The translations under genes and the position numbers were made by a program. The notes beneath the pieces were generated by a model that was not told the origin of the DNA, made no database searches, and saw only the letters and a list, made by a program, of their open reading frames with translations. Below are positions 2,012-55,398 of a stretch of DNA of 64,000 bases, piece after piece (within the stretch, counting starts at the first letter, position 1; each line of letters starts with the position of its first letter). Source of the stretch: Candidatus Magasanikiibacteriota bacterium (GTDB lineage: Bacteria > Patescibacteriota > Patescibacteriia > Magasanikbacterales > GWA2-37-8); contig JAUSEN010000015.1 of NCBI GenBank assembly GCA_030650025.1, forward strand, positions 13,728 through 77,727. The letters run 5' to 3'.

Positions 2012-2584
2012 ATGTTAAATAAGAAATATTTCACGACTATCCGTCAAGATCTGTTAGCGTACGCCGAAAAAAGGCGCGAAGTGATTAAAGCCGCGGGGGA
2101 TGCCCAGCATGCCGCCAAAAAGACGATTTTTGCCTTGCAAAGAGATGATCTTAAGGCTGGTACTGAATCTTTAGAGTACGCCAGGGAGAAGCTAACTGGT
2201 TTATACAAAAAATACCAATCCGAGCCCGATTTATTTGCCGAAGGGTCTTACCGCGCTGGTCTCGAAGAATTTGTGGAAGCGACGCTGTTTCAGCAATTTC
2301 TCGATAAGAAAAATTTAGACCAAATTAAAGGCTTGCCGATTGACAGTGACTTATTTGTTTCCGGGCTTTGCGATTTACCGGGCGAAATTTTGCGTTATGC
2401 TATTAAATTAGCCACCGCCAGAAAGCACTCTGATGTTAAAAATTGTCTTGGCGCGGTTCAGGAAATTATTAGCGAGTTAGTAGACATGGATTTAACCGGC
2501 TACAATCGCCAAAAGTTTGACCAAGCCAAGCAAGCTCTTAACAAACTAGAACAAGTTGTTTACGAGCTTAGTCTCAAACCGTAA
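2012..2584 (+). CDS. translin-family protein (putative nucleic-acid binding)
   Basis: 190 aa; conserved blocks ALQRDDL, YRAGLEEFVEA, GLCDLPGEILRYA and C-terminal helix pattern typical of archaeal/bacterial translin-like proteins (by recall, not searched). Confidence 0.45.
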   Translation: MLNKKYFTTIRQDLLAYAEKRREVIKAAGDAQHAAKKTIFALQRDDLKAGTESLEYAREKLTGLYKKYQSEPDLFAEGSYRAGLEEFVEATLFQQFLDKKNLDQIKGLPIDSDLFVSGLCDLPGEILRYAIKLATARKHSDVKNCLGAVQEIISELVDMDLTGYNRQKFDQAKQALNKLEQVVYELSLKP

Positions 2585-12398: not shown

Positions 12399-13520
12399 AT
12401 GCCCAAAAGACTCCTCATTACACTGGAATATTTCCCGCAAATTGGAGGTATTGCTTCATATGTGCATAATTTTGCGAAGCATTTAAATAAAGAAGAAACA
12501 GTTCTGTACGCGCCCGCCTCTTCCGGAAGCGCTAAATTTGACGAGGCCTCTGGCCTGACAGTATATCGTCGTAGCCCGTTTTTTTTACTGTGGTGGCCGC
12601 GCTGGTTAAAACTGCTTTTCCAAGTTTGGTGGATTATCGCTAAAGAAACCATTACCGAGATTCATGTTCACCAAGCCTTGCCCGTTGGCTATATTGCTTT
12701 GTTTTTTAAAAAATTTAAAAACATTCCCTATGTTTTATTTTTACATGGGTCGGATTTAGAATATGGCCTGCGTCCGGCCAAGCGTTTTAAATTTAAACAC
12801 ATTTGCACAGAGGCCAATCGCCTCGTTGTTAATAGCGAATTTTTGCGCCACAAGTTAGAGAGTAAGATTGATAACCTGCCTACCATTCAGGTAATTTACC
12901 CCGGGCCGAGTGACGTTTTTTTTAAACCAGTGGAGCCAGTCAAGATTCAAACCTTAAAAAGTCGGCTGGGTCTGTCGGGCAAAAAAATTTTGCTGACTGT
13001 TTCTCGGCTGGTGGATGGCAAAGGTTTGCCGCAAATGCTAACCTGCCTTGCGAAGCTGGTCGCTCTTGATTCGCAAGTGGTTTGGGTGCTAGTCGGAACT
13101 GGCCCCAAAATGAGTATCTTGTCCGCCGCTGTGCAAAAATTAAACCTTCAGAATTCAGTGCGTTTTATTGGCGATGTCGCCAATTCCGAATTGCCTAATT
13201 TTTACCACCTGGCTGATATTTTTAGTTTGCTCACTCACCCCGATCTCGAAGCCGAGGAGGGTTGGGGCACAGTTTTTTTGGAAGCCAGCGCTAGTGGCCT
13301 TCCCATTGTGGCGGGGCGCGTTGGGGGCGTCGATGAATCAGTTATAAATGGTTTGACCGGGTTTGTAGTCGAAGCCAATAATACCACAGAAGTTTTTAAC
13401 GCTTTTACAGAGTTATTGTCCAATTTAGAGTTGCGCCATCAAATGGGAGAGGCTGGTAAACAGCGGGTTTATAACGAATTTCGTTGGGAAATACAAATTA
13501 ATAAATTTTTAGCTACCTAA
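12399..13520 (+). CDS. glycosyltransferase family 4 (GT-B)
   Basis: C-terminal motif EASASGLPIVAGRVGGVDESVINGLTGFVV typical of GT4 retaining glycosyltransferases. Confidence 0.8.
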   Translation: MPKRLLITLEYFPQIGGIASYVHNFAKHLNKEETVLYAPASSGSAKFDEASGLTVYRRSPFFLLWWPRWLKLLFQVWWIIAKETITEIHVHQALPVGYIALFFKKFKNIPYVLFLHGSDLEYGLRPAKRFKFKHICTEANRLVVNSEFLRHKLESKIDNLPTIQVIYPGPSDVFFKPVEPVKIQTLKSRLGLSGKKILLTVSRLVDGKGLPQMLTCLAKLVALDSQVVWVLVGTGPKMSILSAAVQKLNLQNSVRFIGDVANSELPNFYHLADIFSLLTHPDLEAEEGWGTVFLEASASGLPIVAGRVGGVDESVINGLTGFVVEANNTTEVFNAFTELLSNLELRHQMGEAGKQRVYNEFRWEIQINKFLAT

Positions 13521-13522
13521 TT

Positions 13523-14266
13523 TTGACTGTCTCAACCAAAATGCTGCCTTTAATTTCTGTCATAATTCCAGTTTATAATCACGCTAAGGCTTTGCGAAAG
13601 TCTCTGGTTTCTTTAGGCGCGCAAACTTATGATAATTTAGAAATAATTATTATTAACGATGGCAGTAATGACAATATTGATGAGGTAGTGACTAATTTTC
13701 AAAGAGATCATATTGTTAAATATATTGTTCAGCCTAATCAAGGCGCCAGCGCGGCTCGCAACAAAGGCTTTAGTTTGGCCAGAGGCGAATATATTATTTT
13801 TTGGGACGCGGATACTATTGCCCCTAAAATTTTTTTAGAAACATTACTTCATGCGCTGGCCACTTGGCCCAACGCCAGTTATGCCTACTGCTCTTATCGC
13901 TTTGGCCTAAAATTAATGTGTAGTCGCGAGTTTTCCAGTGAGGACTTGCGCCACACCAATTATATTGACACCACCTCTTTAATTCGTCGGTCGGCTTTAG
14001 TGGATTTGAGTGGGCCCTTTGATATCACCCTTAAGAGATTCCAAGATTGGGACTTATGGCTTACATTGCTTGCTAAAAATCGGATCGGAGTTTTTGTGCC
14101 ATCTCTAATTTTTAAAAAAATAACTCATGGCCGCTTGGGCATGAGCCAGTGGTGGCCGCGGATTTTTTTTAATTTGCCCTGGCAAATTCCCGCTGTCAAG
14201 AATTATCTTCTGGCTAAACGCGCGGTTGAGTTAAAACATGATCTTTTGAATAAAGCCAGGCGCTAA
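13523..14266 (+). CDS. glycosyltransferase family 2 (GT-A)
   Basis: VIIPVYNHAKALRKSL...IIINDGSND...DAD motifs of GT2. Confidence 0.8.
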   Translation: MTVSTKMLPLISVIIPVYNHAKALRKSLVSLGAQTYDNLEIIIINDGSNDNIDEVVTNFQRDHIVKYIVQPNQGASAARNKGFSLARGEYIIFWDADTIAPKIFLETLLHALATWPNASYAYCSYRFGLKLMCSREFSSEDLRHTNYIDTTSLIRRSALVDLSGPFDITLKRFQDWDLWLTLLAKNRIGVFVPSLIFKKITHGRLGMSQWWPRIFFNLPWQIPAVKNYLLAKRAVELKHDLLNKARR

Positions 14267-15626
14267 GACTAGTGAGAAGTACTATTCCTAAAACATGAAA
14301 TAAAGCCGGGGATGTTAAATTGACAACTAATAAAGCCGAGAGGATCGCCCACCACAATTTAAGTTCGTCTAACGCTCTTATTTTTTGTAATAATACCAGT
14401 AAATAAAATCCCCACGCGGCTAAGCCGAGTAGCCCCAGTTCGGCCCAAATTTCTAAGTATCCCCAATCAAAATGCGGAGTAGTAATATCTTCTTTAAAAA
14501 TTGGGCTGTACACTGTTACGGTATCGCCGAGGCCAGTGCCGATGAGGGGGTGAATCTTAATTTTATTCAAAATTTTCGGCAAGAGCAGTACGCGGCTCAA
14601 GGCGCTGTCCTCAATTTGTGGAGTGACTACGCTTTGGAGGCGGAGCCCAAACAGCTCGAAGCCGAGCGATCGCCCACGGCTGGCGCCGAGATGCAAAGTG
14701 GTAAAAATTAGCACCAATAACATAATCGTACCAATACTCCCGAACAGCCAGCGTTTAATAAATTGCCGGCTAAATAAAAATATTAACCCGACGCCGAGCG
14801 CTAAAATATAAATGCGCGTTAAATTGGTAGCTAGCACTATGAGGAGCGCGGGCACGGCCAGTTTATAGCGCGTGTCTTTGGATTTTTTTATCAAATTATT
14901 AACGTAATATAAAATTAGCGGCACGAGCAGTAAATGCTCGTTTAAAACTAAGCGGAAATAATTAAACGGCAAGGTGGTGATCTTGCCCAAAGCGACATCA
15001 CGCCACCAGTGGTAGTAGACATCTTGCAAGATAAACAAATTTGCCGAATATAACGCGAATGTCGCTAGCACAAAAAGCGCGTTTGCTAGCGCGGCGGCAA
15101 AACAGGCGTCTAAAACAAATAATTTAAATTTTTCATCGCGCCACCATTCTTGGAGCGGGAAAAAATACAGCAAAAATAAATAAGGGAGGAAGTCTGAAGC
15201 CACTAGGCCCGCGGCGTGCCAATTAAAATAGCCCCTGATAGCTCCAAACAGCCCTGCCAAGAGTAGCCCGCAGAGCGCCAGGCTAACAGGCCAAGCTTGG
15301 AAAAAAGTCTTTTTGAGGTTGGCTGGCAATAGTTTTTTCCCCAAGAAAATGCTAACAGTCAATATCAAAAACCAAGTGCGCAGCGACAGTCCGGCTAAAG
15401 CTAAAAACCCCCCGGCTCCTCCTAGAATAAATTCTCCGGCAATCAAGACAATCGCCGCTTTCTCATTATAACATAACCAGTATACTGCCAAGATTATTAT
15501 TAATAATGTTACCAAGCCATTAACTGGACTCGCTGGCCACAGAGGCGTTTCAGGATTAAAGCTAAAGGAAAACAAACGTAACGCGAAATAAGACAAAAAT
15601 AAATAACCAAATCTTTTGTTAAACAT
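14214..15626 (-). CDS. O-antigen ligase/polymerase-like membrane protein (Wzy/WaaL family)
   Basis: 470 aa polytopic membrane protein with a large external loop HPLIGTGLGDTVTVYS...WGYLEIWAELGLLGL typical of O-antigen ligase domain. Confidence 0.65.
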   Translation of the reverse strand: MFNKRFGYLFLSYFALRLFSFSFNPETPLWPASPVNGLVTLLIIILAVYWLCYNEKAAIVLIAGEFILGGAGGFLALAGLSLRTWFLILTVSIFLGKKLLPANLKKTFFQAWPVSLALCGLLLAGLFGAIRGYFNWHAAGLVASDFLPYLFLLYFFPLQEWWRDEKFKLFVLDACFAAALANALFVLATFALYSANLFILQDVYYHWWRDVALGKITTLPFNYFRLVLNEHLLLVPLILYYVNNLIKKSKDTRYKLAVPALLIVLATNLTRIYILALGVGLIFLFSRQFIKRWLFGSIGTIMLLVLIFTTLHLGASRGRSLGFELFGLRLQSVVTPQIEDSALSRVLLLPKILNKIKIHPLIGTGLGDTVTVYSPIFKEDITTPHFDWGYLEIWAELGLLGLAAWGFYLLVLLQKIRALDELKLWWAILSALLVVNLTSPALFHVLGIVLLTSLSAWLYSKDHVLTQPRV

Positions 15627-15628
15627 AT

Positions 15629-16564
15629 TTATTTAAGTATCGCGCCTGCTAGTTCTCGGTGCCCGGCTAAAAATTGTTCTGTTTTGAGAGGTTTTCCACC
15701 TTCAAGCTGTAGCTCGTGAACAGCGATACTTCCGGAAGCTGTGCCGATCTTTAGCAAATTGTTAATCAGATTTACTTGGGCAGGCTTAAGGACCAGCGTA
15801 GAAGTTTCGTTTTCGTCATAAGAAATTTTTAAAAACTTTAAACGTTTCTGGCCCCAGAAAGTAAATATGCCCGGCCATTTGTGATAGGCGCGATACTGGT
15901 TATAAATCTCTCGGGCCGGTTTTTGCCAATTAACGCGGCCCTGGTCTTTGGCAATTCGCTGGCAAAAAATTGCCACTGTCTCATTTTGCGCGGCCGGAAC
16001 AATTTTGCCATTATAAAAATCCCGGGCTGTAGGTATAAGTAATTTTGCGCCCGCTTCCGTAGCCCGCGCCTCCACCGTTTCGTAGAGCTCATCTTTTTGG
16101 AGCTCTAGCGTAGTTTGCGCTAAAATTGGCCCATGGTCCATTTTGGTATCCATGAGCATTATGCTTATGCCAATAGTTTCGTCGCCTCGTAAAATTGCCT
16201 CATGTAGCGGAGTCGCGCCGCGGTAGCGCGGCAAGGCCGACGGATGCAGATTAATTGCCCCTAATTTAGCTAAAGATAGCGTTGATTCAGGCATTATTAG
16301 CCCATACTGATAAACAATAAAAATATCCGGTCGGGGAATTTCGAGCGGCGGATTATAATCTAGCAAACTCTCTGGCTGTAGTACGCGGATTCCACGTTTT
16401 TCCGCCGCTACCTTAACCGCGCCAGCCTCTTTAATATGGCCTCGGCCGGTGGCTTTGTCCGGCTGTGCCACGACCGCTAAAATTTTAAAATCACCCGCCT
16501 CAAAAATTTGCGTTAAAATTTGCGCCGCGGGCTCGGGCGTGCCAAAAAACCAAACATTAATCAT
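15629..16564 (-). CDS. fmt: methionyl-tRNA formyltransferase
   Basis: N-terminal formyltransferase domain (FFGTPEPAAQIL, HPSALPRYRGATP) plus C-terminal Fmt domain; def-fmt synteny. Confidence 0.9.
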   Translation of the reverse strand: MINVWFFGTPEPAAQILTQIFEAGDFKILAVVAQPDKATGRGHIKEAGAVKVAAEKRGIRVLQPESLLDYNPPLEIPRPDIFIVYQYGLIMPESTLSLAKLGAINLHPSALPRYRGATPLHEAILRGDETIGISIMLMDTKMDHGPILAQTTLELQKDELYETVEARATEAGAKLLIPTARDFYNGKIVPAAQNETVAIFCQRIAKDQGRVNWQKPAREIYNQYRAYHKWPGIFTFWGQKRLKFLKISYDENETSTLVLKPAQVNLINNLLKIGTASGSIAVHELQLEGGKPLKTEQFLAGHRELAGAILK

Positions 16565-17075
16565 ACCGCTTATATTGGGAGTCAGGTTTTTTGGTTACGG
16601 CTTTATGTAAATCCTTGGCATTTTCTATGTATAAATGGCCTTGCAAGTGGTCGCATTCATGCTGGATAATCCGAGCAAAAAAATCTTCAGCCACAAAATT
16701 AATTTTTTCTCCTTTCGAACTTAGCGCCTTGACCCGAATTTTAGTGTAACGCTTAATTTTTCCATACATTCGAGGAACCGACAAGCACCCCTCCTCGTCC
16801 CACTCTTGATGGCGGTCAATCTTTTCCCAAGTAGGGTTTATTAAACATAAATCCTCCCGTGGATTCAGGGCATTGTAAGTTTTGATAATCGTACAAATTT
16901 GCTGGCCGACTCCTACTTGCACGGCCGCGAGCCCGACGCCGTCTTTGACATACATCGTTTCCACCATGTCTTTGATAAATTTTTGGATAGCTCTGGTTTT
17001 TACCTGATCTCCCGGTATCGGGAGAGCTCTGGCATGAAGAATGGGGTTGGGGTCAAATACTATGTCGTATATCAT
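16557..17075 (-). CDS. def: peptide deformylase
   Basis: Motifs GVGLAAVQVG, EGCLSVP, QHECDHLQG. Confidence 0.9.
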   Translation of the reverse strand: MIYDIVFDPNPILHARALPIPGDQVKTRAIQKFIKDMVETMYVKDGVGLAAVQVGVGQQICTIIKTYNALNPREDLCLINPTWEKIDRHQEWDEEGCLSVPRMYGKIKRYTKIRVKALSSKGEKINFVAEDFFARIIQHECDHLQGHLYIENAKDLHKAVTKKPDSQYKRYD

Positions 17076-17081
17076 AGTGGC

Positions 17082-18932
17082 TTAAAAAAATAAATTGTTA
17101 GGGTTAATATCAACTTTCCAGGGTTCGGGAAGAGTCTTTATAAGAATGGTAGCCATCTGCCAATCACTCGGCGGCTGAATTTTTATTATAAAAATAGCGC
17201 GCTGATTCGCTGTCGTGTTGTCTATTGTAATCCTAGAAGCGTCCATCGTCAATTCCCGCAGTTTAGCTTCCAGTTGCTCCGCGGCCGCGGCCGCGCTTAG
17301 AGGGTTTTTAAAATCAGCAAAAAACTTTAGTAAAATAGCAAAAGGCGGCCAGCGAAATTGCTCTCGCTCCGCTAGTTCAGCCTCATAAAATTTTTTAGGG
17401 TTGCCAAAAAATTTAAAAAAATTATGATCCGCGTAGCGCGTTTGGAGTAGAGGCGACAAAGCCAGGCGCAGGCCAGCCTCTCTTAAAGTATGCCAGAGCT
17501 CCATGGCTGCCTGCCAGCCTCCCCCGATGAGCGCTAAATCAGCGTCAAAAAATGCCAGGGCGCCAATTTTCTCCCCCGCGATTTTATTAAGGACAAAAGA
17601 TGTCCCCACCACGATACTGCCAGGCAAACCGGCTTCTAAATTATCCGGAAGCTTTTTAAACTTATCAACCACGAACACCGGGCGTTCAGGAAATCGGCGG
17701 CGGATTTCTCGAGCCACAAAATCTACCCCGAGGCCGGAATAAACCACCGTCAGCCCGCCACAGCGGCGGCAGCTGTTCCCCTGGGCGGGGATTTGGTTGC
17801 ATTTTGGGCAGAATAATTCTTTGCTAGCTGATTGCATTGCCAAATTGGCGCCGCATTTTAAACAGTCATAAGGCAAGGCGCAGTCTTGGCAAAAAATTAA
17901 ATGCGCTTCGCCGCGGCGGGCCACGATAAGTAAATTGAATTTTGTTTTATTATTACTAAATTGAGAAATCAAGCGTTCGGAAAAAATTGTCCGATTCCCG
18001 CCTTTTTTTTCATCACGCATATTCACAATTTCCGGCAAAATAACCGGCAGTTGGTCAAGAGCAGGGGGCGCGGAGCTTTGGATTTCATAATACAATTCCG
18101 CCGATGGGCTATGAGCGTAGTAGATAATTTTTGCCTGATGAGCGGTGGCTAAAAGCCGCGCCGCTTCGCGCGTAGTGTAGCGCGGCGCCATGTCAAAGCT
18201 TTTATAACTGGGGTTACCCTCATCCACCATATGAATTTGGGTAAGATCCTGGAAGGGTAAACTAAGCGCGCGCCGCGTGCCGCCTATTACCAAGTTTTTC
18301 CCGAGGAAAAGATCAAACCAAATATCTTTGTAATCACGAGTGCTGGTTTCTCCTGAAACGAACCGCGTGCGGTGCTTAATTTTTTTAGGCAACAATTTTT
18401 TAATCGCCAATAAATCCTGGGTTTCGGGTAATAAGATCAAGGTTTGACCGCGGCTCTCGAGGTGGTTAAAAATGTCGGTCAATACAACGCCCTCGTCTTT
18501 AAAGCTGGCAAAGTTAAGCCGAGTTTTAGCGCTAGCGGGTATAGCGAGCGGCAGTTGTTGGCTACGCGCCCGAGCGTTAGTGGCCGCTAATTTTTTTAAA
18601 AAACTTTTTGTTAAATTGGGCAAGGCAGATTTAATCAGCCAGCCGAGGGGCGCGCGGTAGCGTTCGGCAATTTGTTTAAACCAAAAAATTTGCGCACAGT
18701 TAATGAGAGCTGTTTCAGTAAGGACGCTTTCTATACTTTTAATTTTTTTACTCTCATCTAGGACGGATTTTTTTGCCAACGCTAAAATTATGGCTGGCTC
18801 CGTTTTTTCGCGGAAGGGGACGGCGACCATTTGGCCAACACACAGTTTGGTTTGGAGACTGTTTGGCGCTAGGTAGTCTAACCTGGCAATACTAAAAGGC
18901 AGCCGCCTTAATAAAGCTACCTCTACAATCAT
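17082..18932 (-). CDS. priA: primosomal protein N' (PriA) homolog lacking recognisable ATPase motifs
   Basis: Conserved priA-def-fmt synteny; C-terminal Cys-rich zinc-binding region (CQDC...CLKC...CPKC...CRRC); helicase motif II region reads MVDEGNPSYKS instead of DEEHD and no GxxGxGKT P-loop is present. Confidence 0.7.
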   Translation of the reverse strand: MIVEVALLRRLPFSIARLDYLAPNSLQTKLCVGQMVAVPFREKTEPAIILALAKKSVLDESKKIKSIESVLTETALINCAQIFWFKQIAERYRAPLGWLIKSALPNLTKSFLKKLAATNARARSQQLPLAIPASAKTRLNFASFKDEGVVLTDIFNHLESRGQTLILLPETQDLLAIKKLLPKKIKHRTRFVSGETSTRDYKDIWFDLFLGKNLVIGGTRRALSLPFQDLTQIHMVDEGNPSYKSFDMAPRYTTREAARLLATAHQAKIIYYAHSPSAELYYEIQSSAPPALDQLPVILPEIVNMRDEKKGGNRTIFSERLISQFSNNKTKFNLLIVARRGEAHLIFCQDCALPYDCLKCGANLAMQSASKELFCPKCNQIPAQGNSCRRCGGLTVVYSGLGVDFVAREIRRRFPERPVFVVDKFKKLPDNLEAGLPGSIVVGTSFVLNKIAGEKIGALAFFDADLALIGGGWQAAMELWHTLREAGLRLALSPLLQTRYADHNFFKFFGNPKKFYEAELAEREQFRWPPFAILLKFFADFKNPLSAAAAAEQLEAKLRELTMDASRITIDNTTANQRAIFIIKIQPPSDWQMATILIKTLPEPWKVDINPNNLFF

Positions 18933-18941
18933 AATCTTAAT

Positions 18942-19733
18942 TTAAAAAACAAAATTAGCGGTCAAATAACCGACGCCAAACGGCGCTTCGTAAGAATACT
19001 CTTGGAAGGAATAATTAATATCGCGCATCACCCCGAGCAAAATTAAAATTGAACGCAGTCCGCACTCGGCTCCAGCTTCGATTAGATTAGCATCTAAATT
19101 CACCACCCCGGCGCTATTACGCGTCTCTAAGAGCTGGCGCAGGGTAGCGTCAAATTCCGCGGCCCGAGGGTTAAAACCAGCTGGAGCATCGGTAGTTAAA
19201 GCATGAGAGAGGTCGCCCGAGGCAATAATGGCCACTCGTAAATTAGTATTAACAATAACCTCTTTTAAATAAGTGCCAAATTCAAAATGAGTTTTGGCGT
19301 CAAAGTCAGAAAACCCAATTGGCAAAATCGGCACCTCTTTCAAGTGGCGCAGTAAATAATAAAGCGGCACCACGCTGCCGTGGTCTAAAGTCGTTTCACT
19401 GATCAGCTTCGTTTTAAAATTAGTATGCCCGGTTCCGTGCCGGACAGCGTTAGCGAGCGTGGACCCACCTCTAAACTTCAGATTAGTCGTTAAATCGCCA
19501 AATTCGCGCAAGTCTGACCGGTACTCTTCGCAAAAATTAATTGTCAAAGCTTCTGGCAAGAAAGTGCCATGGGGCGAAATTATTACGACAGTATCGGGCC
19601 GCCGGGCGTAAAGATCCTCTTCCAGTTTAAGGAGCGCGCGTCTAGTTTTATCTACTTTTTTTATAATTCGTTTGCCAATTGTCGGAATTAAAAGGGGCGG
19701 GTGCGGTGTAATGGCGGCAAATACTAGGGCCAT
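18942..19733 (-). CDS. class III extradiol dioxygenase (LigB/DODA/Memo-like) family protein
   Basis: ITPHPPLL, VVIISPHG, LDHGSVVPL, ASGDLSHAL blocks resembling the LigB-type fold (by recall). Confidence 0.45.
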   Translation of the reverse strand: MALVFAAITPHPPLLIPTIGKRIIKKVDKTRRALLKLEEDLYARRPDTVVIISPHGTFLPEALTINFCEEYRSDLREFGDLTTNLKFRGGSTLANAVRHGTGHTNFKTKLISETTLDHGSVVPLYYLLRHLKEVPILPIGFSDFDAKTHFEFGTYLKEVIVNTNLRVAIIASGDLSHALTTDAPAGFNPRAAEFDATLRQLLETRNSAGVVNLDANLIEAGAECGLRSILILLGVMRDINYSFQEYSYEAPFGVGYLTANFVF

Positions 19734-19738
19734 AGGTT

Positions 19739-22003
19739 TTATTTAAAGTTGGCAATAGTTACTTTATCTTGCGCCGCCAGTTTGGCAATTTTATCAGCGG
19801 CGGCAAAGCGGTTGGTTTTGGCTAAGTTATTCAAAGTTATCACCACGTACTGTTTTTTGGTTTTTTTACTTTCTATTAGCATTACGAGCGTAGCGCCCCC
19901 TTCGTCCGTATAGCCGGTTTTACTGGACTTTACCGTGTAATATTTGTTTTTTAAGCGTAATAGTTGGTTGGTATTCAAAAGGTTCTGTATTCGTACTTTA
20001 CCACCAGTTTGTTTAATTGTCACGCGGTAATTTACCTGGCTCATGGCTTTACGCACCGTGTCATTTTTAGCAGTTTTTATAAAAATTTTTAAGAGATCGC
20101 GAGCCGTAGTTTGGTTATCCGCGCTTAAGCCGGTTGGTTCGACTATCGAGGTATTATCCGCGCCCCAGGACGCTAAGCGGTCATTGATTCTGGCTACAAA
20201 ATCTTGCTCGGTGCCGGCGGATAATCTGGCGATTATCTTCGCCGCCGCGTTTACGGACCCCACATACATGGCATTCCAAAGGTCGCCTCGGCTCATTGAG
20301 TCCCGCGCTGTTAATTTGAGAATATTATTTTCCGCGCTGTCGAGCTTTGTGTTATAAGTGATCATTTTTTTATCAGGCACAAAATCCTGCTCCAGCGCTT
20401 CATAGCCAGTTAAAATTTTAGTTATAGAGGCTAAGGGGTAGCGGATATCCACATTTTTACCAGCCAAAATTCTCCCGCTCGGATATTCCGCCAAGAGATA
20501 GCTGCCCGCGGTCGTGGAAATTGAATTTAAAATCGGGCCGCCCGCGTCCCCCAAATATTTATTTTTCGAAGACAAGAGCGCCGAATTAATGAAAATTCCT
20601 TCTCCAGAGGGGAGCGTCGCCAGCGTTAAATTATCGGTAAAAATTATATTTGAGCGCTTGTATCCGAGCGCCCTAAAAGTTTCATCATCCGCGATCCGCC
20701 GGCGTTTGCCCTTTTCTATCACGTAGACAACATTACTGCCTTTCACTTGCAACATAGTGCCATCGGGGAAGGGGAGGGGGAGAGCCGCGATTTCCAAATC
20801 AGCAATTTCGCTGGCTCGCCTTTTTTCCATGGGCACGCTTTTCAATTTCACTTCAAGCAGTACCTCATTGGTGATCGGATATAAAATATTATCTTTTATA
20901 AAATAATATTTCTTAATGTCAGTCACATTAAGAACTAACCCTTCCGGGGCAGTGGTAGAAACGGTGATAGGGGAGCCAATCATATACCCGGCAATGTCAG
21001 TGTCGCTAATCTCCACAATTTCTTGGGGGTTATAGCCGAGCGCCCGGACCACTGCTTCCGAGGCAAATGGCCGGAGCGTGTCATAATCTAAGAGATAGGT
21101 TGAAGTCGAAGTTTGAAGCAGAGAATAATTGGGGAATAATAAATCCACTCCAGTCGCGTACGCCGACAGGTCAGAGCTCGCGACTTCAATCGCGATCTTG
21201 GGGTTTAGGCGGCTGACTAAAGCGCCCATATTGGCAAATTTTCTTTTCACGCCGTCTTGCACTAGCCAGTAAGTATTATCGTCGAGCGACTTGAGGAGCG
21301 TGCCATTAGGGTAAAACATTTCAAACCAGGTGCTCCAAATACGCCAAAAATTTTGATTCCCATGAATATGTGGCGTGTAGGTGTACAAAAAAGCTGTCGC
21401 CCAACTTTGCGGCGTCACCGCTCGGTTGTCAATGACAATGGGAGCGTCTTTCTTTTTTACAACGGGGTGCGTTTGGTTATCATAATACCAGCGAATAATT
21501 CCCGCCGCGTTGTTCACTTGCCGCCCAAAGCCGCGGTATTTTTGAAGGCGACTTTCGTCCATACTACACGCGTCGCAAATGCCATAGCCCGCGGCCCAAT
21601 CCAATTGTTTTTGGGTAGGGGAATCGTCAGTAATTAAACTTTGTTCTTTTTGGAGCGTTACCAGAATATATTTAGGGTTAACCTGGTAGGTATTGGCGGC
21701 GTCGTAGATTATCTCGGCCGCGGTTTTGACAGCGCCGTTAAAATCAGGGCAAGAGTAACTCGCCAAAAAACTGCCGCGGCGCTCTAAAAAATCCTGAATA
21801 TCGCGCGTTGTCCAGTTAGTGGCATTTTGCATTTCTTGGTCCGAAATAATCAAGTGTGGGTTAAAATCCGCCTGTGCTAGGGACGCTAGAGGAACCAACG
21901 TCAGCGTTATAACGCCAATTACTAAACCAAAAATAGCGATGTTTTTGAAGATCGTTTTCATGAGTCTATTATAACATAGACTAAGCAAACAAAAAATAGA
22001 CAT
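19739..22003 (-). CDS. secreted D-alanyl-D-alanine carboxypeptidase (peptidase S11/PBP5-like) with about 480-aa N-terminal repeat-containing extension
   Basis: Signal/TM at N-terminus; C-terminal S11 motifs SITK (SxxK), SAEN-like region, KTGYT (KTG); N-terminal region with about 3 imperfect 40-50-aa repeats (WLVQDGVKRKF..., YYFIKDNILYPI..., VVYVIEKGKRRRI...). Confidence 0.7.
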   Translation of the reverse strand: MSIFCLLSLCYNRLMKTIFKNIAIFGLVIGVITLTLVPLASLAQADFNPHLIISDQEMQNATNWTTRDIQDFLERRGSFLASYSCPDFNGAVKTAAEIIYDAANTYQVNPKYILVTLQKEQSLITDDSPTQKQLDWAAGYGICDACSMDESRLQKYRGFGRQVNNAAGIIRWYYDNQTHPVVKKKDAPIVIDNRAVTPQSWATAFLYTYTPHIHGNQNFWRIWSTWFEMFYPNGTLLKSLDDNTYWLVQDGVKRKFANMGALVSRLNPKIAIEVASSDLSAYATGVDLLFPNYSLLQTSTSTYLLDYDTLRPFASEAVVRALGYNPQEIVEISDTDIAGYMIGSPITVSTTAPEGLVLNVTDIKKYYFIKDNILYPITNEVLLEVKLKSVPMEKRRASEIADLEIAALPLPFPDGTMLQVKGSNVVYVIEKGKRRRIADDETFRALGYKRSNIIFTDNLTLATLPSGEGIFINSALLSSKNKYLGDAGGPILNSISTTAGSYLLAEYPSGRILAGKNVDIRYPLASITKILTGYEALEQDFVPDKKMITYNTKLDSAENNILKLTARDSMSRGDLWNAMYVGSVNAAAKIIARLSAGTEQDFVARINDRLASWGADNTSIVEPTGLSADNQTTARDLLKIFIKTAKNDTVRKAMSQVNYRVTIKQTGGKVRIQNLLNTNQLLRLKNKYYTVKSSKTGYTDEGGATLVMLIESKKTKKQYVVITLNNLAKTNRFAAADKIAKLAAQDKVTIANFK

Positions 22004-22015
22004 AATAAGTTAAAA

Positions 22016-22033
22016 ATGCTAAAATTTTAGCAT
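22016..22033. promoter_or_regulatory. perfect 18-bp palindrome ATGCTAAAATTTTAGCAT overlapping arfB start codon (candidate operator)
   Basis: Read directly; located in divergent intergenic region between the S11 peptidase gene and arfB. Confidence 0.35.
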
Positions 22034-22424
22034 GATCAAAGAGAGCGAACTCAAAATTAATTTTGTCCGTTCCCCTGGCCCGGGCGGGCAGAATGTTAAC
22101 AAAACCTCAACCAAAGCTATGGTGCGCTGGGGAGTTGGCGCTTCGCGTTTTTTTAATAATGCCGAGAAAGCCAGAATCCGTCTTAAACTCGCTAATCGCC
22201 TTAATAGCGCCGACGAAATTATAGTTACTAGTTCTGCCGAGCGTTCCCAACTGCAAAATAAAAATAAAGCGATTTTGCGTTTAAATTTTTTAATAAGTAA
22301 TGCTTTAATCATACCCAAAACCCGCCGTGCCACCAAACCCACCCGCGCCTCGCGGCTTAAACGCCTAGAGCGCAAAACCAAGCGCTCGCTGGTTAAGCGC
22401 GCGCGGCGAATCATTCTCGATTGA
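22032..22424 (+). CDS. arfB: peptidyl-tRNA hydrolase ArfB (alternative ribosome rescue factor, RF-1 domain)
   Basis: GGQ motif SPGPGGQNVNKT plus basic C-terminal tail; about 130 aa as in ArfB/YaeJ. Confidence 0.75.
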   Translation: MIKESELKINFVRSPGPGGQNVNKTSTKAMVRWGVGASRFFNNAEKARIRLKLANRLNSADEIIVTSSAERSQLQNKNKAILRLNFLISNALIIPKTRRATKPTRASRLKRLERKTKRSLVKRARRIILD

Positions 22425-22430
22425 TTATTT

Positions 22431-25064
22431 TTATTTTATCACCACCTTGCCTTTTTCAGCCGAAATTAGAGCGGTGTCTCCGGGGTTAATACTGCCGCTG
22501 ATAATTTTTAAAGCCAGCGGGTCTAACATGTCGGTCTGAATCAAGCGCTTCAAGGGCCGCGCGCCATAATCAACATTAAAACCAGCCTTGGTTAAATATT
22601 TTTTGATAGCGGCGTCAAAGTTCAAAGTAATTTTTTGTTCTCCTAAACGCTTAGCGACTTCCGCGAGGCGCAGGTCCACAATTTGTTCAATGTCTTTTTC
22701 GCTCAAGGATTCAAAGACAATCGTCTCGTCCACGCGGTTAAGAAATTCCGGTTTAAAGGTTTCTTTAAGCACCTCCATAATTTGCGAGTTTATCAACTCG
22801 CGTTCTCTCTTACTTGATTTTGATTGGCCGTCCGCGAAACCAAATTCGCCTTTCTTGTGCCGGTCAAGAATTAAGTGGCTCCCCAAATTACTGGTCATAA
22901 TAATAATAGTATTTTTGAAATTTACTTTGCGACCCTTAGCGTCAGTTACATGGCCGTCGTCCAAAATTTGGAGTAGCACGTTAAATACATCCGGGTGCGC
23001 TTTTTCAATTTCGTCAAATAAAATAACCGCGTAAGGCCGGCGCCGCACAATCTCCGTCAGTTGGCCGCCTTCTTCATAGCCCACATACCCCGGGGGCGAG
23101 CCAATAATTTTGGAAACCGCGTGCTTTTCCATATACTCGCTCATATCCACCCGAACCAGAGCGTCTTCCGTGTCAAACATAAATTCCGCCAGTGTTTTCG
23201 CCAGTTCTGTTTTACCAACACCCGTTGGCCCGAGGAAAATAAACGAACCAATCGGGCGCTTCTCTTCGCCAATGCCCGCGCGCGAGCGGCGAATGGCGTT
23301 GGCTACTGCTCGGATCGCTTCCGTTTGCCCCACGACTCGTTTACTTAAAATATCTTCTAACTCTGTTAATTTTTGAGTTTCGGTTTTGAGCATTTTTTGC
23401 ACGGGTATGTGCGTCCAGCGCGCGACCACTCCGGCCACATCCTCATCCGTTACCTCTTCTTTTAAAATTCCATGGCTCTTTTGCATCTGGGTAAGCTTCA
23501 ATTCCGTGTCTTTGAGGTCTCGTAAAATATCGGGAATGCGGCCATAGCGGATCTCGGCCACTTTTTGCAAATCGCCTTTGCGCTCTTCAATCTCGGCCTG
23601 TTGTTTTAATTTGTCAACGTCTTTTTTAAAGGCATGAATTTTTGTGATTAACTCTTTCTCATTCTTCCACTTGGCTTCTAAGCCCAAACTGTTCTCCTGC
23701 AAATTAGCTAGTTCACTTTCGACTTTGGCTAAACGCTCTTTAGAATCCGGGTCAGTTTCTTTGGCCAGGGCGCGTTTTTCGATCTCGAGTTTAGTAGTGG
23801 CGCGCTTCATGCGGTCGAGGTCCTCGGGCATGGAATCAATCTGGAGGCGTAGCGCCGCCGCCGCTTCATCAATTAAATCAATGGCTTTATCCGGTAAAAA
23901 GCGGTCCGTGATATAGCGCTCCGAGAGTTTAACCGCCGCTAATATGGCCGCGTCCGTAATGCGGACGCCGTGGTGAACTTCGTACTTATCTTTAATCCCG
24001 CGTAAAATTGCCACGGTATCGTCGCTTGAGGGCTCGTTGACCATCACGGGCTGGAAGCGGCGCTCGAGCGCGGCGTCTTTTTCAATATGTTTCTGGTATT
24101 CTTTAAGAGTCGTGGCGCCAATCGTATGGAGTTCGCCGCGTGCCAGCATGGGTTTCAGCATGTTCGAGGCGTCAATCGCGCCTTCCGACGCTCCGGCTCC
24201 GACAATCGTATGAAGTTCGTCAATAAATAAAATAATCTTCCCGGCCGAATTATTAATTTCTTTTAAAACCGCCTTCAGGCGTTCTTCAAATTCGCCGCGA
24301 AATTTTGTGCCCGCCACCAAAGCGCCAACATCTAAGGTGATGACGTCTTTATTTTTGAGAGATTCCGGCACATCGCCATTAACAATCCGCTGGGCTAAAC
24401 CTTCCACGATCGCGGTTTTGCCTGTGCCCGGCTCACCAATTAAAACCGGATTATTCTTGGTGCGCCGCGAAAGAATTTGCATGACGCGGCGAATTTCTTC
24501 ATCGCGCCCAATGACCGGATCAATTTTTTCTTTGCGCGCCAGGTCTGTTAAATTTTTGCCATATTTTTCTAAAGCATTGTACTTGGCTTCGGGCTCTGGC
24601 GAATCGACTTTCTGTGACCCTCGGATCGTGGCTAAAATTTTTAGCGCCGCTTCATAATTTACCGCGTAAGTTTGGAGAATCTCGCTGATCGGATTTTTGC
24701 CAGTTAAAAATGCCAAGAGTAAATGTTCGACGCTAATATATTCGTCGCCCATTTTTTTAGCTTCCGCGGCCGCGGTTTGAAATACGTGTACCATTGGCTG
24801 CCCGAGCATTACTTGCCCCATGGCGCTTTGCGACCAACCTTGTTGTTTGGGGAGTTGATTAACGAGATTAGCCACCTGGCTTTCCAAAACTGGCAGGGGA
24901 GTGTTTAATTTTTGTAATAGCGACACCACCACGCTATCCTGATCCTTCAACAGCGCCAAAAATAAATGTGGCGGTTCAACTTGCTGTTGGCCGTTAGTAT
25001 TGGCAATACTGGCCGCGGTCTGAATCGCTTCTTGGGATTTATGCGTAAAATTTTGGGGGATCAT
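22431..25064 (-). CDS. clpB: ATP-dependent chaperone ClpB
   Basis: 877 aa; two AAA+ modules ([29 protein letters not shown]), coiled-coil middle domain, Clp N domain. Confidence 0.95.
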
Positions 25065-25079
25065 ACTTGTTTGTCACTT

Positions 25080-25106
25080 TAGCACTCACATAACTAGAGT
25101 GATAAT
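25080..25106. promoter_or_regulatory. CIRCE-like inverted repeat (putative HrcA operator) upstream of clpB
   Basis: TTAGCACTC-N9-GAGTGATAA, one mismatch from consensus TTAGCACTC-N9-GAGTGCTAA, 16 nt upstream of clpB start. Confidence 0.5.
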
Positions 25107-34086: not shown

Positions 34087-35055
34087 TTATTTTCCGCCGC
34101 GATGAAATTTTTTGTGAATATCACGCAGTTTTTTATTGGTAACGTGAGTGTAAATTTGGGTAGTGGCAATGTTTTTGTGGCCGAGCAGTTCTTGCACCGA
34201 GCGCATGTCCGCGCCCTGATCTAATAAATCGGTAGCAAAACTGTGGCGGAGAGTGTGGGGGGTGGCATCCACTGGCAAGCCGGCCATCGTCGCATATTTA
34301 CGTACTAAACGTTCCACCGAACGAGGTGTTAAGCGATGTTCTTTATCTTCGGTGTTATTTTTTTGGTAATTAATAAAAAGCGGGGGATATAAATCATTTT
34401 TTCGTGTTTCTAGATATTTAGCCAACCAACCCAGGGCACGCTCGGAGAAATAAACTGTGCGGGTACTGCCGCCTTTACCGTTAATTGCGATTTCTAGATC
34501 TTTAATTTTTTTATTTATAATATTTTTTATGTCAAACGACCTTATATTAAGCGACGTTAATTCCGACACGCGCATGCCAGTAGAAAAGAGGGTTTCGAGT
34601 ATAGTTCGGTCTCGGAGACCGTCGGGAGTGGCCGTATCCGGCATATGCACAAGCTTTTCTACTTGATCAAAGCTCAAAAATTTGATAGTTTTGTCTTTGT
34701 CAGTTAGCTTCGGGAGCTTAATTTTGTCACTGGGAAGGCACTGGATATCGCGTTCTGTAAAGTATGCTAACAGGTTGCGCAGGGCTATCAAGTAGTAGTT
34801 CTGAGTCGTTTTTTTAATATAACGGCCTTTAGAGTCTTTTTTGCGAGAAAGATATAGGCGGTAGTTCCAAATCTGCTCCTGGGTCAATTCCTGGGGTTTT
34901 AGGCTCTCTAGGCGGTTATTTTTAAGCCAACCAGTAAACATCTTGAGAAAATTATCATAATTCCTGGAAGTTACCGGGCTTAAACCCTTCTCAACCTCGC
35001 AATAATCAAGAAAGTCCCGTATATGCTTAATGATTGTGGTATTGGAGCGTTTCAT
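34087..35055 (-). CDS. xerD: tyrosine site-specific recombinase XerC/XerD family
   Basis: Catalytic box HTLRHSFATDLLDQGADMRSVQELLGHKNIATTQIYTHV, R...K...HxxR...Y residues. Confidence 0.85.
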   Translation of the reverse strand: MKRSNTTIIKHIRDFLDYCEVEKGLSPVTSRNYDNFLKMFTGWLKNNRLESLKPQELTQEQIWNYRLYLSRKKDSKGRYIKKTTQNYYLIALRNLLAYFTERDIQCLPSDKIKLPKLTDKDKTIKFLSFDQVEKLVHMPDTATPDGLRDRTILETLFSTGMRVSELTSLNIRSFDIKNIINKKIKDLEIAINGKGGSTRTVYFSERALGWLAKYLETRKNDLYPPLFINYQKNNTEDKEHRLTPRSVERLVRKYATMAGLPVDATPHTLRHSFATDLLDQGADMRSVQELLGHKNIATTQIYTHVTNKKLRDIHKKFHRGGK

Positions 35056-35135: not shown

Positions 35136-36125
35136 CTATTTCCAATAAACCCTGTCTCCAAAACGCAGATCTATGTAGCTAGTAATTTTAGGATTTTGGG
35201 CTAGTAAAGTTAGTAAATGGTCAGCCTGTGTTTTTAAATCTTTTTTAAGATCCATGATTACAAACCAGCCCCGCGCCGTATTTAGCCTCACCACTCCCCC
35301 GTTCGACTCATCCCATTCTAAACTGCTGGCTTTGAGTCCTTCCGATTGGTTTACTAAATCAAAAGAATTTAATAAGTTGGAAAATTTAACAGAATCAATT
35401 GGATATTCAAACATTTTAAGTTCGGAACTTAAGGATATTATAACTGGGTAAGCCCCCCAGCGCTTGCGAAGCATTGTTGGGTCAGTCTTAATTTCATTCC
35501 CCCGCTCTCCGTTTAAAAGGGGCGGACTAGAGCTTGTGCTAGTAGAAAGTAATAAGACTTCTGACACTGTCTCCAAAATTTTTAAAATTTGGCCATTTTT
35601 ATCCGCGTACGCAGTATGCGCTTGACCCGCCACTATAGCCGCGGGGATTTTTTGAGTCGCCGTCAAAGCCAGAGAATTAGGAAATTTTTTTTGCACATCA
35701 ACGGCACTCAAAAATTGAAAATCTCGAGCCAGATTATCGGCAATTTTTTTGGTGTCAACAAAAAAATAATTATTTTTAGGAATTACCAGCCAGCCTTTAA
35801 TTTGATCTTTCACCGCTCCGACCAGTTCTTCTTTTTTAAAGAACTCTTCGCTGGTTTCTACTAAAATAGTAGTGATGCGGAAAAAAGGCAGGTATACCAT
35901 TAAAGTGACCCACAAAAAAAAGCAAGCGGCCAGGATATAGAAATATTTTTTCAAACCGATAACTTTGCTAGGAGTGCTGGTTAATTGCCGCCGACCATGC
36001 TGGCCAGCCAAAGTCTGGTGCAGTGACGCGATCTCTTGAGCCCGTTTTTTTCTAGCGCGGCGCTCTCGCCAGCCAAGTTTTGGTTTGTGTTTTTCGGCGG
36101 CGCGAGGAGAATAATCTCGAAGCAT
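35136..36125 (-). CDS. ftsQ: cell division protein FtsQ/DivIB-like (POTRA domain)
   Basis: Basic cytoplasmic N-terminus, single TM, POTRA-like region; neighbour of dcw genes. Confidence 0.6.
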   Translation of the reverse strand: MLRDYSPRAAEKHKPKLGWRERRARKKRAQEIASLHQTLAGQHGRRQLTSTPSKVIGLKKYFYILAACFFLWVTLMVYLPFFRITTILVETSEEFFKKEELVGAVKDQIKGWLVIPKNNYFFVDTKKIADNLARDFQFLSAVDVQKKFPNSLALTATQKIPAAIVAGQAHTAYADKNGQILKILETVSEVLLLSTSTSSSPPLLNGERGNEIKTDPTMLRKRWGAYPVIISLSSELKMFEYPIDSVKFSNLLNSFDLVNQSEGLKASSLEWDESNGGVVRLNTARGWFVIMDLKKDLKTQADHLLTLLAQNPKITSYIDLRFGDRVYWK

Positions 36126-47035: not shown

Positions 47036-47359
47036 TTAAAAAATTGGCTGCAGTGGAGCAAATTTTATATCTAAAACAATTCTCGTACCGAGGGCCTGTT
47101 CCAACTCGTTTAAAATTTGCTTTTTCTTGAGACGAATTTCCGCTGCCACCGCCGGTGAGGCCACACCCACTAATAGGACGCTGTTTTTAAAACAGATAAT
47201 ATTTAAATAATCTGGAATCAACTTGGGAAAATAATTTTCCAAAATTTGGTTAGCCTTCTCTACTACTAAGGCCGCTGTTACCTGGCGCGCCAAGGGTCTT
47301 TGGCCTTGCGAGCGGTCTTCTAAAATTTTTCTAATAGTCAAAAAACTCATACGCGCCAT
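47036..47359 (-). CDS. DUF721/DciA-like small protein
   Basis: 107 aa; pattern ...AALVVEKANQIL...NSVLLVGVASPAVAAEI... resembles DUF721 (by recall); overlaps start of helicase gene by 13 nt. Confidence 0.45.
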   Translation of the reverse strand: MARMSFLTIRKILEDRSQGQRPLARQVTAALVVEKANQILENYFPKLIPDYLNIICFKNSVLLVGVASPAVAAEIRLKKKQILNELEQALGTRIVLDIKFAPLQPIF

Positions 47360-50300: not shown

Positions 50301-50427
50301 CCGTCGTCTTCCCCGTGCCCGCGCCTGCCACAATCAAAAGCGGGCCGGCGACATATTCCACGGCTTCGCGCTGCGCTTTGTTTAATTTAAAATCCGGCAT
50401 ATATTTATCTCCCTTAATTTTTACCAT
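47347..50427 (-). CDS. UvrD/PcrA-type SF1 helicase with C-terminal PD-(D/E)xK (RecB-family) nuclease and Cys cluster
   Basis: Walker A AGAGTGKTTVI, UvrD motifs; C-terminal RIDRLDQLPDGTIEIIDYKTG nuclease motif and CARCDWRDIC; contains in-frame insert encoded by element A. Confidence 0.8.
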   Translation of the reverse strand: MVKIKGDKYMPDFKLNKAQREAVEYVAGPLLIVAGAGTGKTTVITSKICRLLEEKLAKPEEVLALTFTDQAAEEMQTRVDEITNVGYADLHISTFHAFCQKILEHHAIDIGLSNSFKLLTDTAGWILIQKNLDKFNLNYYRPLGNPTKHIHEFLKHFSKCKDELITPEEYLEYAEGTKKDQNGALGGEEKNRLTELALAYHTYNQLLRDSALMDFGDLLSYTVKLFRERPNILKLFQNKYKYILVDEFQDVNYAQYELIKLLADEKSQLTVVGDDDQSIYAFRGASVSNILRFKDDYQDAKEVVLSENFRSGQAILDVAYKSIQNNNPDRLEVKLKIDKKLIAKKTVISTTKPARHADASQAGGEKSRSRPRTDRDSSPPRAGRNDNLGTVTHIHKATAEEEVTAVLTEIVRLKDANEDITWDDFAILVRANSHADAFINGFESRGIPYEFLASSGLYRQAIILDCVNFFKVLSNFHESSAIYRLLCLPFLEFKENDLQKITSGAKRKSISYYEALKRAAEFGVSPAGVAVGNKLIDIIHAGLQATRADKPSVVLYNFLENSGYLTYLTHQENKGVGAVIRQIRYLKQFFDYIAEYEAITPDAHVNNFIEHFLMVVAAGDKGSLYQPSDTPESINILTVHAAKGLEWRYVFVVNLVEDRFPARSRSEALQIPDPLVKEQLPEGDSHLQEERRLFYVAMTRAKERLYFTSAFDYGGVRAKKISRFLDEIGLVAPENKAKKKIELPKKTERAKPAAPGEYEMPKTFSFSQLRSYETCPYQYKLAHILRIPMKGSASFSFGLSLHSTLQAFYERIKELNSASQVSLFDTPPRAVAKKDGLIKAPEFAELLKIYDAKWISDWYQNKRQREDMYKKGKDILKVFYSAEEGNWNIPIGLESWFKIKVGEYVMNGRIDRLDQLPDGTIEIIDYKTGQSKDKLTSDDKEQLLLYQIAVGEISEFKNIGKPSKLTFYYLNDEIKQSFIGESKDLEKLKAKLAGTISQIMTGDFTATPSQFVCARCDWRDICEWRV
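49268..49391. repeat. GC-rich nested-palindrome element A (MITE/RPE-like) inserted in-frame in helicase-nuclease gene
   Basis: Termini AATTGTCATTCCGAC / GTCGAAATGACAG (imperfect TIR); internal IRs CCCGCCC-tgg-GGGCGGG, GGCGGGGAGGAATCTC/GAGATTTCTCCCCGCC, GTTCGCGgtCGCGAAC; encodes low-complexity RHADASQAGGEKSRSRPRTDRDSSPPRAGRND. Confidence 0.5.

Positions 50428-53095: not shown

Positions 53096-55398
<2,303 letters not shown>

Follow-up and report, generated by a model that had tools for sequence, protein, structure and literature searches.

A PriA ortholog that has probably become a pseudohelicase

The 64,000-nucleotide (nt) stretch analyzed here (the window; contig JAUSEN010000015.1 of assembly GCA_030650025.1, positions 13,728 to 77,727, from a Candidatus Magasanikiibacteriota bacterium) carries on its minus strand, at 17082-18932, a gene for a 616-amino-acid (aa) homolog of the replication restart protein PriA. 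We propose, with a probability of roughly 70%, that this gene is the PriA ortholog of Ca. Magasanikbacteria turned pseudohelicase, that is, a static platform for fork recognition that would recruit the replicative helicase. The protein keeps the PriA architecture minus the winged helix, namely the 3′-DNA-binding domain (3′BD), two RecA-like lobes, the zinc-binding cysteine-rich region (CRR) and the C-terminal domain (CTD), and its gene occupies the ancestral priA position in the order priA-def-fmt. At the same time, the P-loop, the Mg-binding Asp, the His of the DExH motif and the arginine finger are all absent, so the protein should neither bind nor hydrolyze ATP, nor translocate along or unwind DNA.

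The open reading frame (ORF) opens with ATG and is intact, with no frameshift. Its product is 100% identical to an NCBI entry labeled "hypothetical protein Q7K39_02715" of Candidatus Magasanikbacteria bacterium.

The domains and fold of PriA are retained

The initial annotation had recognized PriA by gene order and a cysteine module, and this identity is supported by domain, profile and structure searches together with the priA-def-fmt synteny. Pfam detects the PriA 3′BD above its gathering score (PF17764, E 1.5e-13, aa 18-105). This is the sole PriA domain that Pfam finds; PriA_C is not detected in the window protein, and the CRR gives weak zinc-ribbon matches. Every significant NCBIfam match is to a priA model, each under its cutoff, and a sequence search of the PDB returned only the PriA proteins of K. 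pneumoniae and E. coli (E 7e-24). The AlphaFold2 model (pLDDT 80, pTM 0.82) is confident except at residues 123-145 and 563-575. With this model as the Foldseek query, each of the top nine matches was a PriA structure (E 2e-35 to 3e-24, TM up to 0.78), Mfd being the next family at 1e-8. Among the best matches was 6DCR, a PriA with its winged helix deleted (TM 0.78/0.75); according to the alignment, a winged-helix domain between 3′BD and helicase core is likewise absent from the window protein.

The following map comes from gapped MAFFT alignments of the window protein with canonical PriAs, that of E. coli included:

18618..18932, minus strand: 3′BD, aa 1-105; D19, Y20 and K65 correspond to E. 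coli D17, Y18 and K61
18489..18617, minus strand: linker and former P-loop region, aa 106-148; no winged helix and no Walker A; P-loop position at about N140-G148 (NFASFKDEG)
18420..18440, minus strand: motif Ia, retained, LILLPET, aa 165-171 (E. coli LVMVPEI); L165 in 92% and P169 in 98% of the family
18261..18287, minus strand: motif Ib, retained, IGGTRRALS, aa 216-224 (E. coli VIGTRSALF); G218 and T219 in 97%, R220 in 88%
18213..18236, minus strand: motif II, degenerate, IHMVDEGN, aa 233-240 (E. coli IVIDEEHD); D320 to V236, E321 to D237, E322 to E238, H323 to G239
18162..18206, minus strand: equivalent of the aromatic-rich loop (motif IIa), YKSFDMAPRYTTREA, aa 243-257, corresponding to E. 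coli Y327-R338
18102..18119, minus strand: motif III, degenerate by alignment, YAHSPS, aa 272-277 (E. coli GSATPA); SAT replaced by A273-H274-S275
17760..17891, minus strand: CRR, 4 x CxxC, with C348, C351, C357, C360, C375, C378, C388 and C391 aligning to E. coli C436...C479
17583..17606, minus strand: motif V, degenerate, GTSFVLNK, aa 443-450 (E. coli GTQMLAKG); only G443 and T444 retained
17457..17480, minus strand: motif VI, degenerate, EAGLRLAL, aa 485-492 (E. coli QVAGRAGR); Gln and arginine finger lost
17085..17432, minus strand: CTD, aa 501-616, aligning to the E. coli CTD and covered by the fold match

The residues that mark the noncatalytic parts of PriA are widely kept. In the 3′BD, Y20 is found in 140/142 and K65 in 127/142 family members, and the eight CRR cysteines are 99 to 100% conserved. 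The zinc module that had been described as C-terminal is thus present (C348...C391), but it is inserted in helicase lobe 2. The CTD residues F515, R523, P529, P530, W605, D608 and P611, which the family conserves, match E. coli F617, R625, P631, P632, W723, D726 and P729.

The helicase motifs are lost or degenerate

From the letters alone, the initial annotation had argued that Walker A and the DExH motif were gone, quoting DIFNHLESRGQTLILLPETQ and MVDEGNPSYKS; both strings exist, at residues 153-172 and 235-245, and the loss of Walker A holds up in the gapped alignments. No [AG]xxxxGK[ST] pattern occurs anywhere in the window protein, and the residue aligned with E. coli K230 is Val/Gly. The TIGR00595 alignment begins at model position 13, just past the P-loop, and pLDDT falls below 50 at aa 123-145, near the former P-loop. 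Motif II is indeed altered, reading VDEG for DEEH, although the claim needs refinement: the D-E pair survives, the loss being confined to the first Asp and the His.

Alignment of 47 syntenic relatives showed a short acidic turn (consensus Y-x-x-x-E-E-K) in place of the 8-residue glycine-rich loop, and none of them has even a relaxed Walker A at the P-loop position. One MAFFT run did put the string AIPASAKT (130-137) under GVTGSGKT. We rejected it as a chance resemblance, since among 48 close relatives the string occurs in this protein alone, its Lys falling in a conserved "KP" that precedes strand β1; it also has Ala in place of both Gly, plus a Pro.

Motif loss extends over a large family

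An exhaustive HMMER search gave 15,100 PriA-like hits, the best 150 representatives of which (50%-identity clusters; E<=1e-69) were inspected; they are mostly 600 to 660 aa long and matched over their full length. Walker A was found in 0/150 of these family representatives versus 119/119 PriAs of the Moranbacteria type and 13/13 other canonical PriAs, a loss far beyond chance. Motifs I and VI are gone throughout the family, no member having kept GRxGR. Motif II, on the other hand, spans a range from near-canonical (e.g., IDEEHSADHKQ) to the VDEGNPSYKS of the window protein, whose "DEGNP" subclade therefore stands at the decayed end. E238 is conserved in 127/142 members, and the position aligned with K230 holds K, R or H in 102/142.

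A few relatives are named "primosomal protein N′" by JGI/NCBI, in contrast to the "hypothetical" label of the window protein. The taxonomic breadth of the P-loop-less family is read from sparse record titles, the informative ones pointing to members of the candidate phyla radiation (CPR) (see below). A literature search combining PriA with Patescibacteria, CPR, Parcubacteria or Saccharibacteria returned nothing relevant; the P-loop-less CPR family is large and apparently not yet described.

DNA-contacting elements are conserved under purifying selection

To gauge constraint, we determined the ratio of nonsynonymous to synonymous substitution rates (dN/dS; Nei-Gojobori) for 14 selected closely related pairs. 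The priA-like gene gave 0.035 to 0.161 with a median of 0.097, compared with 0.108 for fmt and 0.058 for def, and is thus under strong purifying selection, as strong as that on its neighbor fmt.

Conservation is unevenly spread along the protein. Mean information is 1.7 to 1.9 bits across the 3′BD, both lobes, the CRR and the CTD versus 0.95 at residues 106-148, where no position reaches 80%. The most conserved 15-aa window is 243-257, the aromatic-rich loop (information 2.83; K244 in 136/142, P250 in 142/142 and R251 in 136/142 members), followed by 216-230, which contains motif Ib; conservation is lowest at 120-134 and 138-152, in the former P-loop region. In E. coli, crosslinks form between the aromatic-rich loop and the template of the lagging strand at the fork junction (PMC5175346). 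The nucleic-acid-contacting and structural elements of PriA have thus been kept, and constraint on the nucleotide-binding site has been relaxed. The majority of conserved family positions are identical to the E. coli residue. We also considered that the ATP cleft might have been repurposed with new conserved residues, and rejected this, since the residues near motif II are those of the PriA-generic aromatic-rich loop (K328, R334, etc.).

The gene occupies a conserved priA-def-fmt block

The priA-like gene belongs to a co-directional, tightly packed cluster that includes a Wzy_C membrane protein gene downstream of fmt. Its other members are:

19739-22003, minus strand: D-Ala-D-Ala carboxypeptidase-like gene
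18942-19733, minus strand: LigB/Memo-like gene (Pfam PF02900, E 7e-36), directly upstream of priA-like with a 9-nt gap
16557-17075, minus strand: def, peptide deformylase (Pfam PF01327 Pep_deformylase, E 2.3e-46), 6 nt downstream of priA-like
15629-16564, minus strand: fmt, methionyl-tRNA formyltransferase (Pfam Formyl_trans_N/C), overlapping def by 8 nt

A scan of GTDB species genomes located 49 related loci, a set biased toward the "DEGNP" subclade by search patterns that came from a 12-sequence subfamily alignment. The block of clpB, S11 peptidase, LigB/Memo-like, priA-like, def, fmt and Wzy_C genes (window span 13000-25100) is kept in essentially all of them (L002-L050). The def gene follows priA-like in 44/49 loci and fmt is syntenic in 44/49; the LigB/Memo-like gene lies upstream in 48/49 and also at the locus of a distant member (L053). 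A second priA-like gene was seen in none of the 49 loci. Within the block, priA-like is the most divergent gene, showing 28 to 33% identity between window and relatives versus 36 to 75% for its neighbors.

Informative record titles among these loci name Ca. Magasanikbacteria/Magasanikiibacteriota, the Patescibacteria group and the Parcubacteria group. Numerous GTDB records with the Magasanikbacteria-type block are instead titled "uncultured Gammaproteobacteria bacterium" (L003, L007, L008, L010, L012-L014, L016, L022, L025 and others) and one "Candidatus Udaeobacter sp."; such titles appear to be placeholders, or taxonomic misassignments, from metagenome-assembled genomes submitted in bulk. 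A more distant P-loop-less PriA-like protein, P0174, labeled Parcubacteria, is encoded at a locus (L052) that does not adjoin def/fmt, being flanked there by a restriction-modification pair (R-HinP1I and a DNA methylase), an OLD-family AAA/TOPRIM gene and an NYN-domain gene.

Comparison with known PriA proteins

With the canonical PriAs of E. coli and K. pneumoniae (TIGR00595; PDB 4NL4, 6DGD, 8FAK), the window protein shares the 3′BD, the bilobed superfamily 2 (SF2) core, the CRR with its 4 x CxxC, the CTD, motifs Ia and Ib and the aromatic-rich loop (TM 0.78), and its gene shares the priA-def-fmt synteny seen in many bacteria. It differs in having no motif I, VDEG as motif II, no motif III, V or VI and no winged helix, in being shorter (616 versus 732 aa) and, presumably, in lacking ATPase and helicase activity.

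Similarly short are the PriAs of the Moranbacteria/Parcubacteria group, represented by P0020, which is the nearest canonical relative of the window protein by profile score (464 bits). These proteins likewise come from CPR bacteria, are ∼670 aa long and have no long winged helix, and the P0020 gene is followed by def. Yet they carry Walker A in 119/119, DE[EQ][HQ] in 118/119 and GRxxR in 119/119 cases, together with Pfam DEAD and Helicase_C domains, and they are ∼63% identical among themselves compared with ∼29% within the P-loop-less family. Since the winged helix is absent or short here too while the motifs are intact, this domain is not universal in PriA, the short architecture is one that CPR lineages share, and the loss of the motor is lineage-specific. 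The named relatives of this intact CPR PriA are Moranbacteria or Parcubacteria, with no Magasanikbacteria among them.

PriA pseudohelicases have been described before, in Deinococcus-Thermus (PMC4504706). The PriA of D. radiodurans has neither ATPase nor unwinding activity but binds its cognate DnaB as well as single-stranded and forked DNA (Lopper et al. 2015, PMC4504706), and a 2017 review of replication restart names Deinococcus as the sole exception to the conserved helicase activity of PriA (PMC5778457). The window protein resembles these proteins in being a PriA ortholog with degenerate Walker A/B motifs and in the logic of a retained DNA-binding scaffold with CRR. It shows two features of such a pseudohelicase, being clearly PriA-derived with degenerate Walker A/B and being kept by selection. 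In contrast, the Deinococcus-Thermus proteins are long ones that bear an N-terminal extension or a winged helix, and they retain a recognizable P-loop in which GKT has become GRT, whereas in the window protein the P-loop is reduced to a short acidic turn, the winged helix is missing and motifs III, V and VI are lost as well.

A laboratory counterpart is E. coli priA300 (K230R), in which a single change abolishes ATPase and helicase activity; the mutant nonetheless differs little from wild type and carries out restart (PMC5778457). Like the window protein as we envisage it, the mutant enzyme is without ATPase, helicase or translocase function yet supports restart both in vivo and in vitro. In priA300 cells, an SF1 helicase, Rep, is believed to make up for the helicase activity that PriA lacks (PMC5778457). 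The difference is that priA300, like the deletion variant in 6DCR, is a laboratory mutant working in a PriB/DnaT/DnaC system, while the window protein is natural and long-evolved, in a lineage for which those partners are not to be expected.

Two further P-loop-less PriA-like proteins came from high-GC organisms, P0024 (593 aa) and P0036 (718 aa), both without helicase Pfam domains or Walker A. P0036 reads ...HGGRF... in place of GSGKT, resembling the K-to-R pattern of Deinococcus-Thermus; P0024 has its entire P-loop region deleted and keeps SATPS and IDEH. In a neighbor-joining (NJ) tree, a rough distance method without support values and too crude to count losses, the CPR sequences stand apart from the non-CPR PriAs, with which P0024 and P0036 group, and canonical PriAs separate the CPR family from the two Deinococcus-Thermus-like P-loop-less proteins. 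This grouping indicates that the motor was lost in CPR independently of the loss in Deinococcus-Thermus; a common origin with those pseudohelicases is not supported by the tree. Nor is a single clean loss within CPR, since the intact Moranbacteria PriAs nest inside a P-loop-less grade. Either there would have been several losses within CPR, or the tree leaves the deep nodes unresolved.

A proposed static platform at abandoned forks

How might such a protein act? We envisage that it would still recognize abandoned replication forks, with the 3′BD holding the 3′ end of the nascent leading strand while the lagging-strand template at the junction would be bound by the aromatic-rich loop together with surfaces of the lobes. 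Held there as a static platform, it would, probably through CRR and CTD, recruit the replicative helicase DnaB for restart, perhaps with the assistance of a DciA-type loader and SSB. Fork remodeling would be left to other enzymes or might not be needed. The initial annotation had offered a structure-specific scaffold as one of two options, and it is this one that we favor: the DNA-contacting elements, namely the aromatic-rich loop, motifs Ib and Ia and the 3′BD, are the best conserved, and precedents exist in D. radiodurans PriA (PMC4504706) and in priA300 (PMC5778457).

The window itself encodes no DnaB, DciA, SSB or RecG. We also looked in it for an intact SF2 helicase that could substitute for PriA, as had been suggested, and found none. 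The sole intact helicase of the window is a superfamily 1 (SF1) enzyme of the UvrD/AddA type, fused to a PD-(D/E)XK nuclease, with intact Walker A (AGAGTGKT) and DEFQ motifs (47347-50427, minus strand, 1026 aa).

Weighing the pseudohelicase against its alternatives

Several observations weigh against a PriA pseudohelicase. The protein stays under the curated PriA thresholds, scoring 152.3 bits with TIGR00595 against a cutoff of 230.35 and at best 194.5 against 813 with a PRK05580 sub-model. Its divergence, the highest in the block, indicates looser constraint than would be typical of a core replication protein. D237 and E238 persist, and many relatives have a basic residue at the K230 position. 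For all family members, ATPase deficiency, DNA binding and partner binding are inferred from sequence. The search for helicases and PriA covered the 64-kb window; elsewhere in the genome there may be another, intact PriA or an SF2 helicase that compensates. To our knowledge, PriB and DnaT homologs are not to be expected in CPR bacteria. Helicase-dead E. coli PriA works only via the PriA-PriB pathway (PMC5778457).

Some of these points would also suit a neofunctionalized paralog or ex-PriA, which would have kept the PriA-like fold and DNA binding for another job, for instance as a regulator or nucleoid-associated factor, with restart carried out by another protein or by an intact PriA elsewhere. 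The priA-like gene does evolve faster than all its block neighbors, its product does score under the curated PriA cutoff, some distant family members such as P0174 do sit in unrelated contexts, and the rest of the genome lies beyond the stretch searched. However, the gene fills the ancestral priA-def-fmt slot exactly as does the intact Moranbacteria-type PriA, its product keeps all PriA-specific domains and most PriA-specific conserved residues, none of the 49 loci has a second priA-like gene, and the named relatives of the intact CPR PriA are Moranbacteria/Parcubacteria rather than Magasanikbacteria. We therefore regard a change of job as unlikely.

Considerably less probable still is a cryptic ATPase, in which hydrolysis would proceed via noncanonical residues (D237/E238 together with a basic residue close to the former P-loop), via an additional nucleotide site or via one supplied by a partner. 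The frequencies of E238 (127/142) and of K/R/H opposite K230 (102/142) could be taken in its favor, as could unresolved reports that E. coli PriA has another, weaker site for nucleotides (PMC5778457). But the window protein itself has Val/Gly opposite K230 and a shorter acidic turn for the glycine-rich loop, and no member retains the arginines of motif VI or the contacts of motifs V and III. No segment is less conserved than the P-loop region, which is predicted to be disordered, and in E. coli K230R alone suffices to kill the enzyme (PMC5778457).

The second option of the initial annotation, a relic in a reduced genome, that is, a decaying and nonfunctional pseudogene, would accord with the degradation of all ATPase motifs, the reduced CPR genome and the NCBI label "hypothetical." Against it stand an intact frame of 616 aa without frameshift, at least 150 clusters of full-length homologs, tight operon spacing, a dN/dS of ∼0.10 comparable to that of fmt, eight invariant Cys, and conserved 3′BD, aromatic-rich-loop and CTD residues, so that we consider it effectively refuted. 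The same holds for an alignment artefact, i.e., an intact P-loop and DEEH that had been misregistered, a danger the initial annotation had itself named: apart from the one MAFFT run with AIPASAKT nothing speaks for it, and the gapped multiple alignments, the absence of any [AG]xxxxGK[ST] pattern, the uniqueness of AIPASAKT with its "KP" Lys and the TIGR00595 alignment that opens after the P-loop show that the original register was right.

Other features of the window

Several other genes of the window deserve mention. An ORF of 190 aa at 2012-2584 (plus strand) belongs by its Pfam match to the Translin family (PF01997, E 1.2e-19). Translins bind nucleic acids, occur mainly in eukaryotes and archaea and are unusual in a bacterial (CPR) genome.

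What appears to be an F-type ATP synthase operon, its subunits assigned from motifs only, contains a gene for a 911-aa P-type cation ATPase (55405-58140, minus strand; E1-E2_ATPase, Cation_ATPase_N/C). It sits between the putative gamma (54475-55398) and putative alpha (58115-59644; Walker A GDRQTGKT) genes and overlaps the alpha ORF by ∼26 nt. A class II lysyl/aspartyl-type tRNA synthetase at 39457-41646 (minus strand; tRNA-synt_2 and an oligonucleotide-binding [OB] anticodon-binding domain) has a C-terminal HD-domain extension (PF01966, E 1.3e-6).

Two ORFs at 22019-22414 (minus strand) and 22032-22424 (plus strand) are nearly coextensive on opposite strands. The latter encodes an RF-1 domain with a GGQ motif (ArfB/peptidyl-tRNA hydrolase-like; PF00472, E 4e-17), and the 131-aa minus-strand ORF is therefore probably spurious. 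Finally, a 329-aa ORF at 35136-36125 (minus strand) had no Pfam match at E<=1e-5; it adjoins genes for a XerC/D-type tyrosine recombinase (34087-35055) and an alanine racemase.

Implications for replication restart in CPR bacteria

The concept of a PriA pseudohelicase is known, in searchable papers only for Deinococcus-Thermus, and this lowers the novelty of our proposal. The CPR family would be a second, independent and much larger natural case and a more radical one, with the P-loop erased and the arginine finger gone. Its conservation pattern offers a natural map of the PriA surfaces that matter for a nonenzymatic role, given that the DNA-contacting loop, motif Ib, the 3′BD, the CRR and the CTD are kept. 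In practice, moreover, these proteins score under threshold and carry the label "hypothetical," so that automated surveys will wrongly conclude that Magasanikbacteria-type genomes have no PriA and no replication restart.

More tentatively, and with distinctly less confidence than we place in the single gene, we suggest that a large part of CPR (Magasanikbacteria together with further lineages of the Parcubacteria type, comprising at least 150 clusters at the 50% identity level) may have converted PriA to an ATP-independent adaptor for fork recognition, possibly several times and independently of Deinococcus-Thermus, while Moranbacteria kept the motor. If so, this conversion would amount to a natural experiment, indicating that the universally selected function of PriA is fork recognition and recruitment of the helicase loader rather than unwinding. 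It would also imply that these tiny-genome symbionts use an as yet undescribed hand-off from PriA to DnaB, one that proceeds without PriB, DnaT or DnaD.

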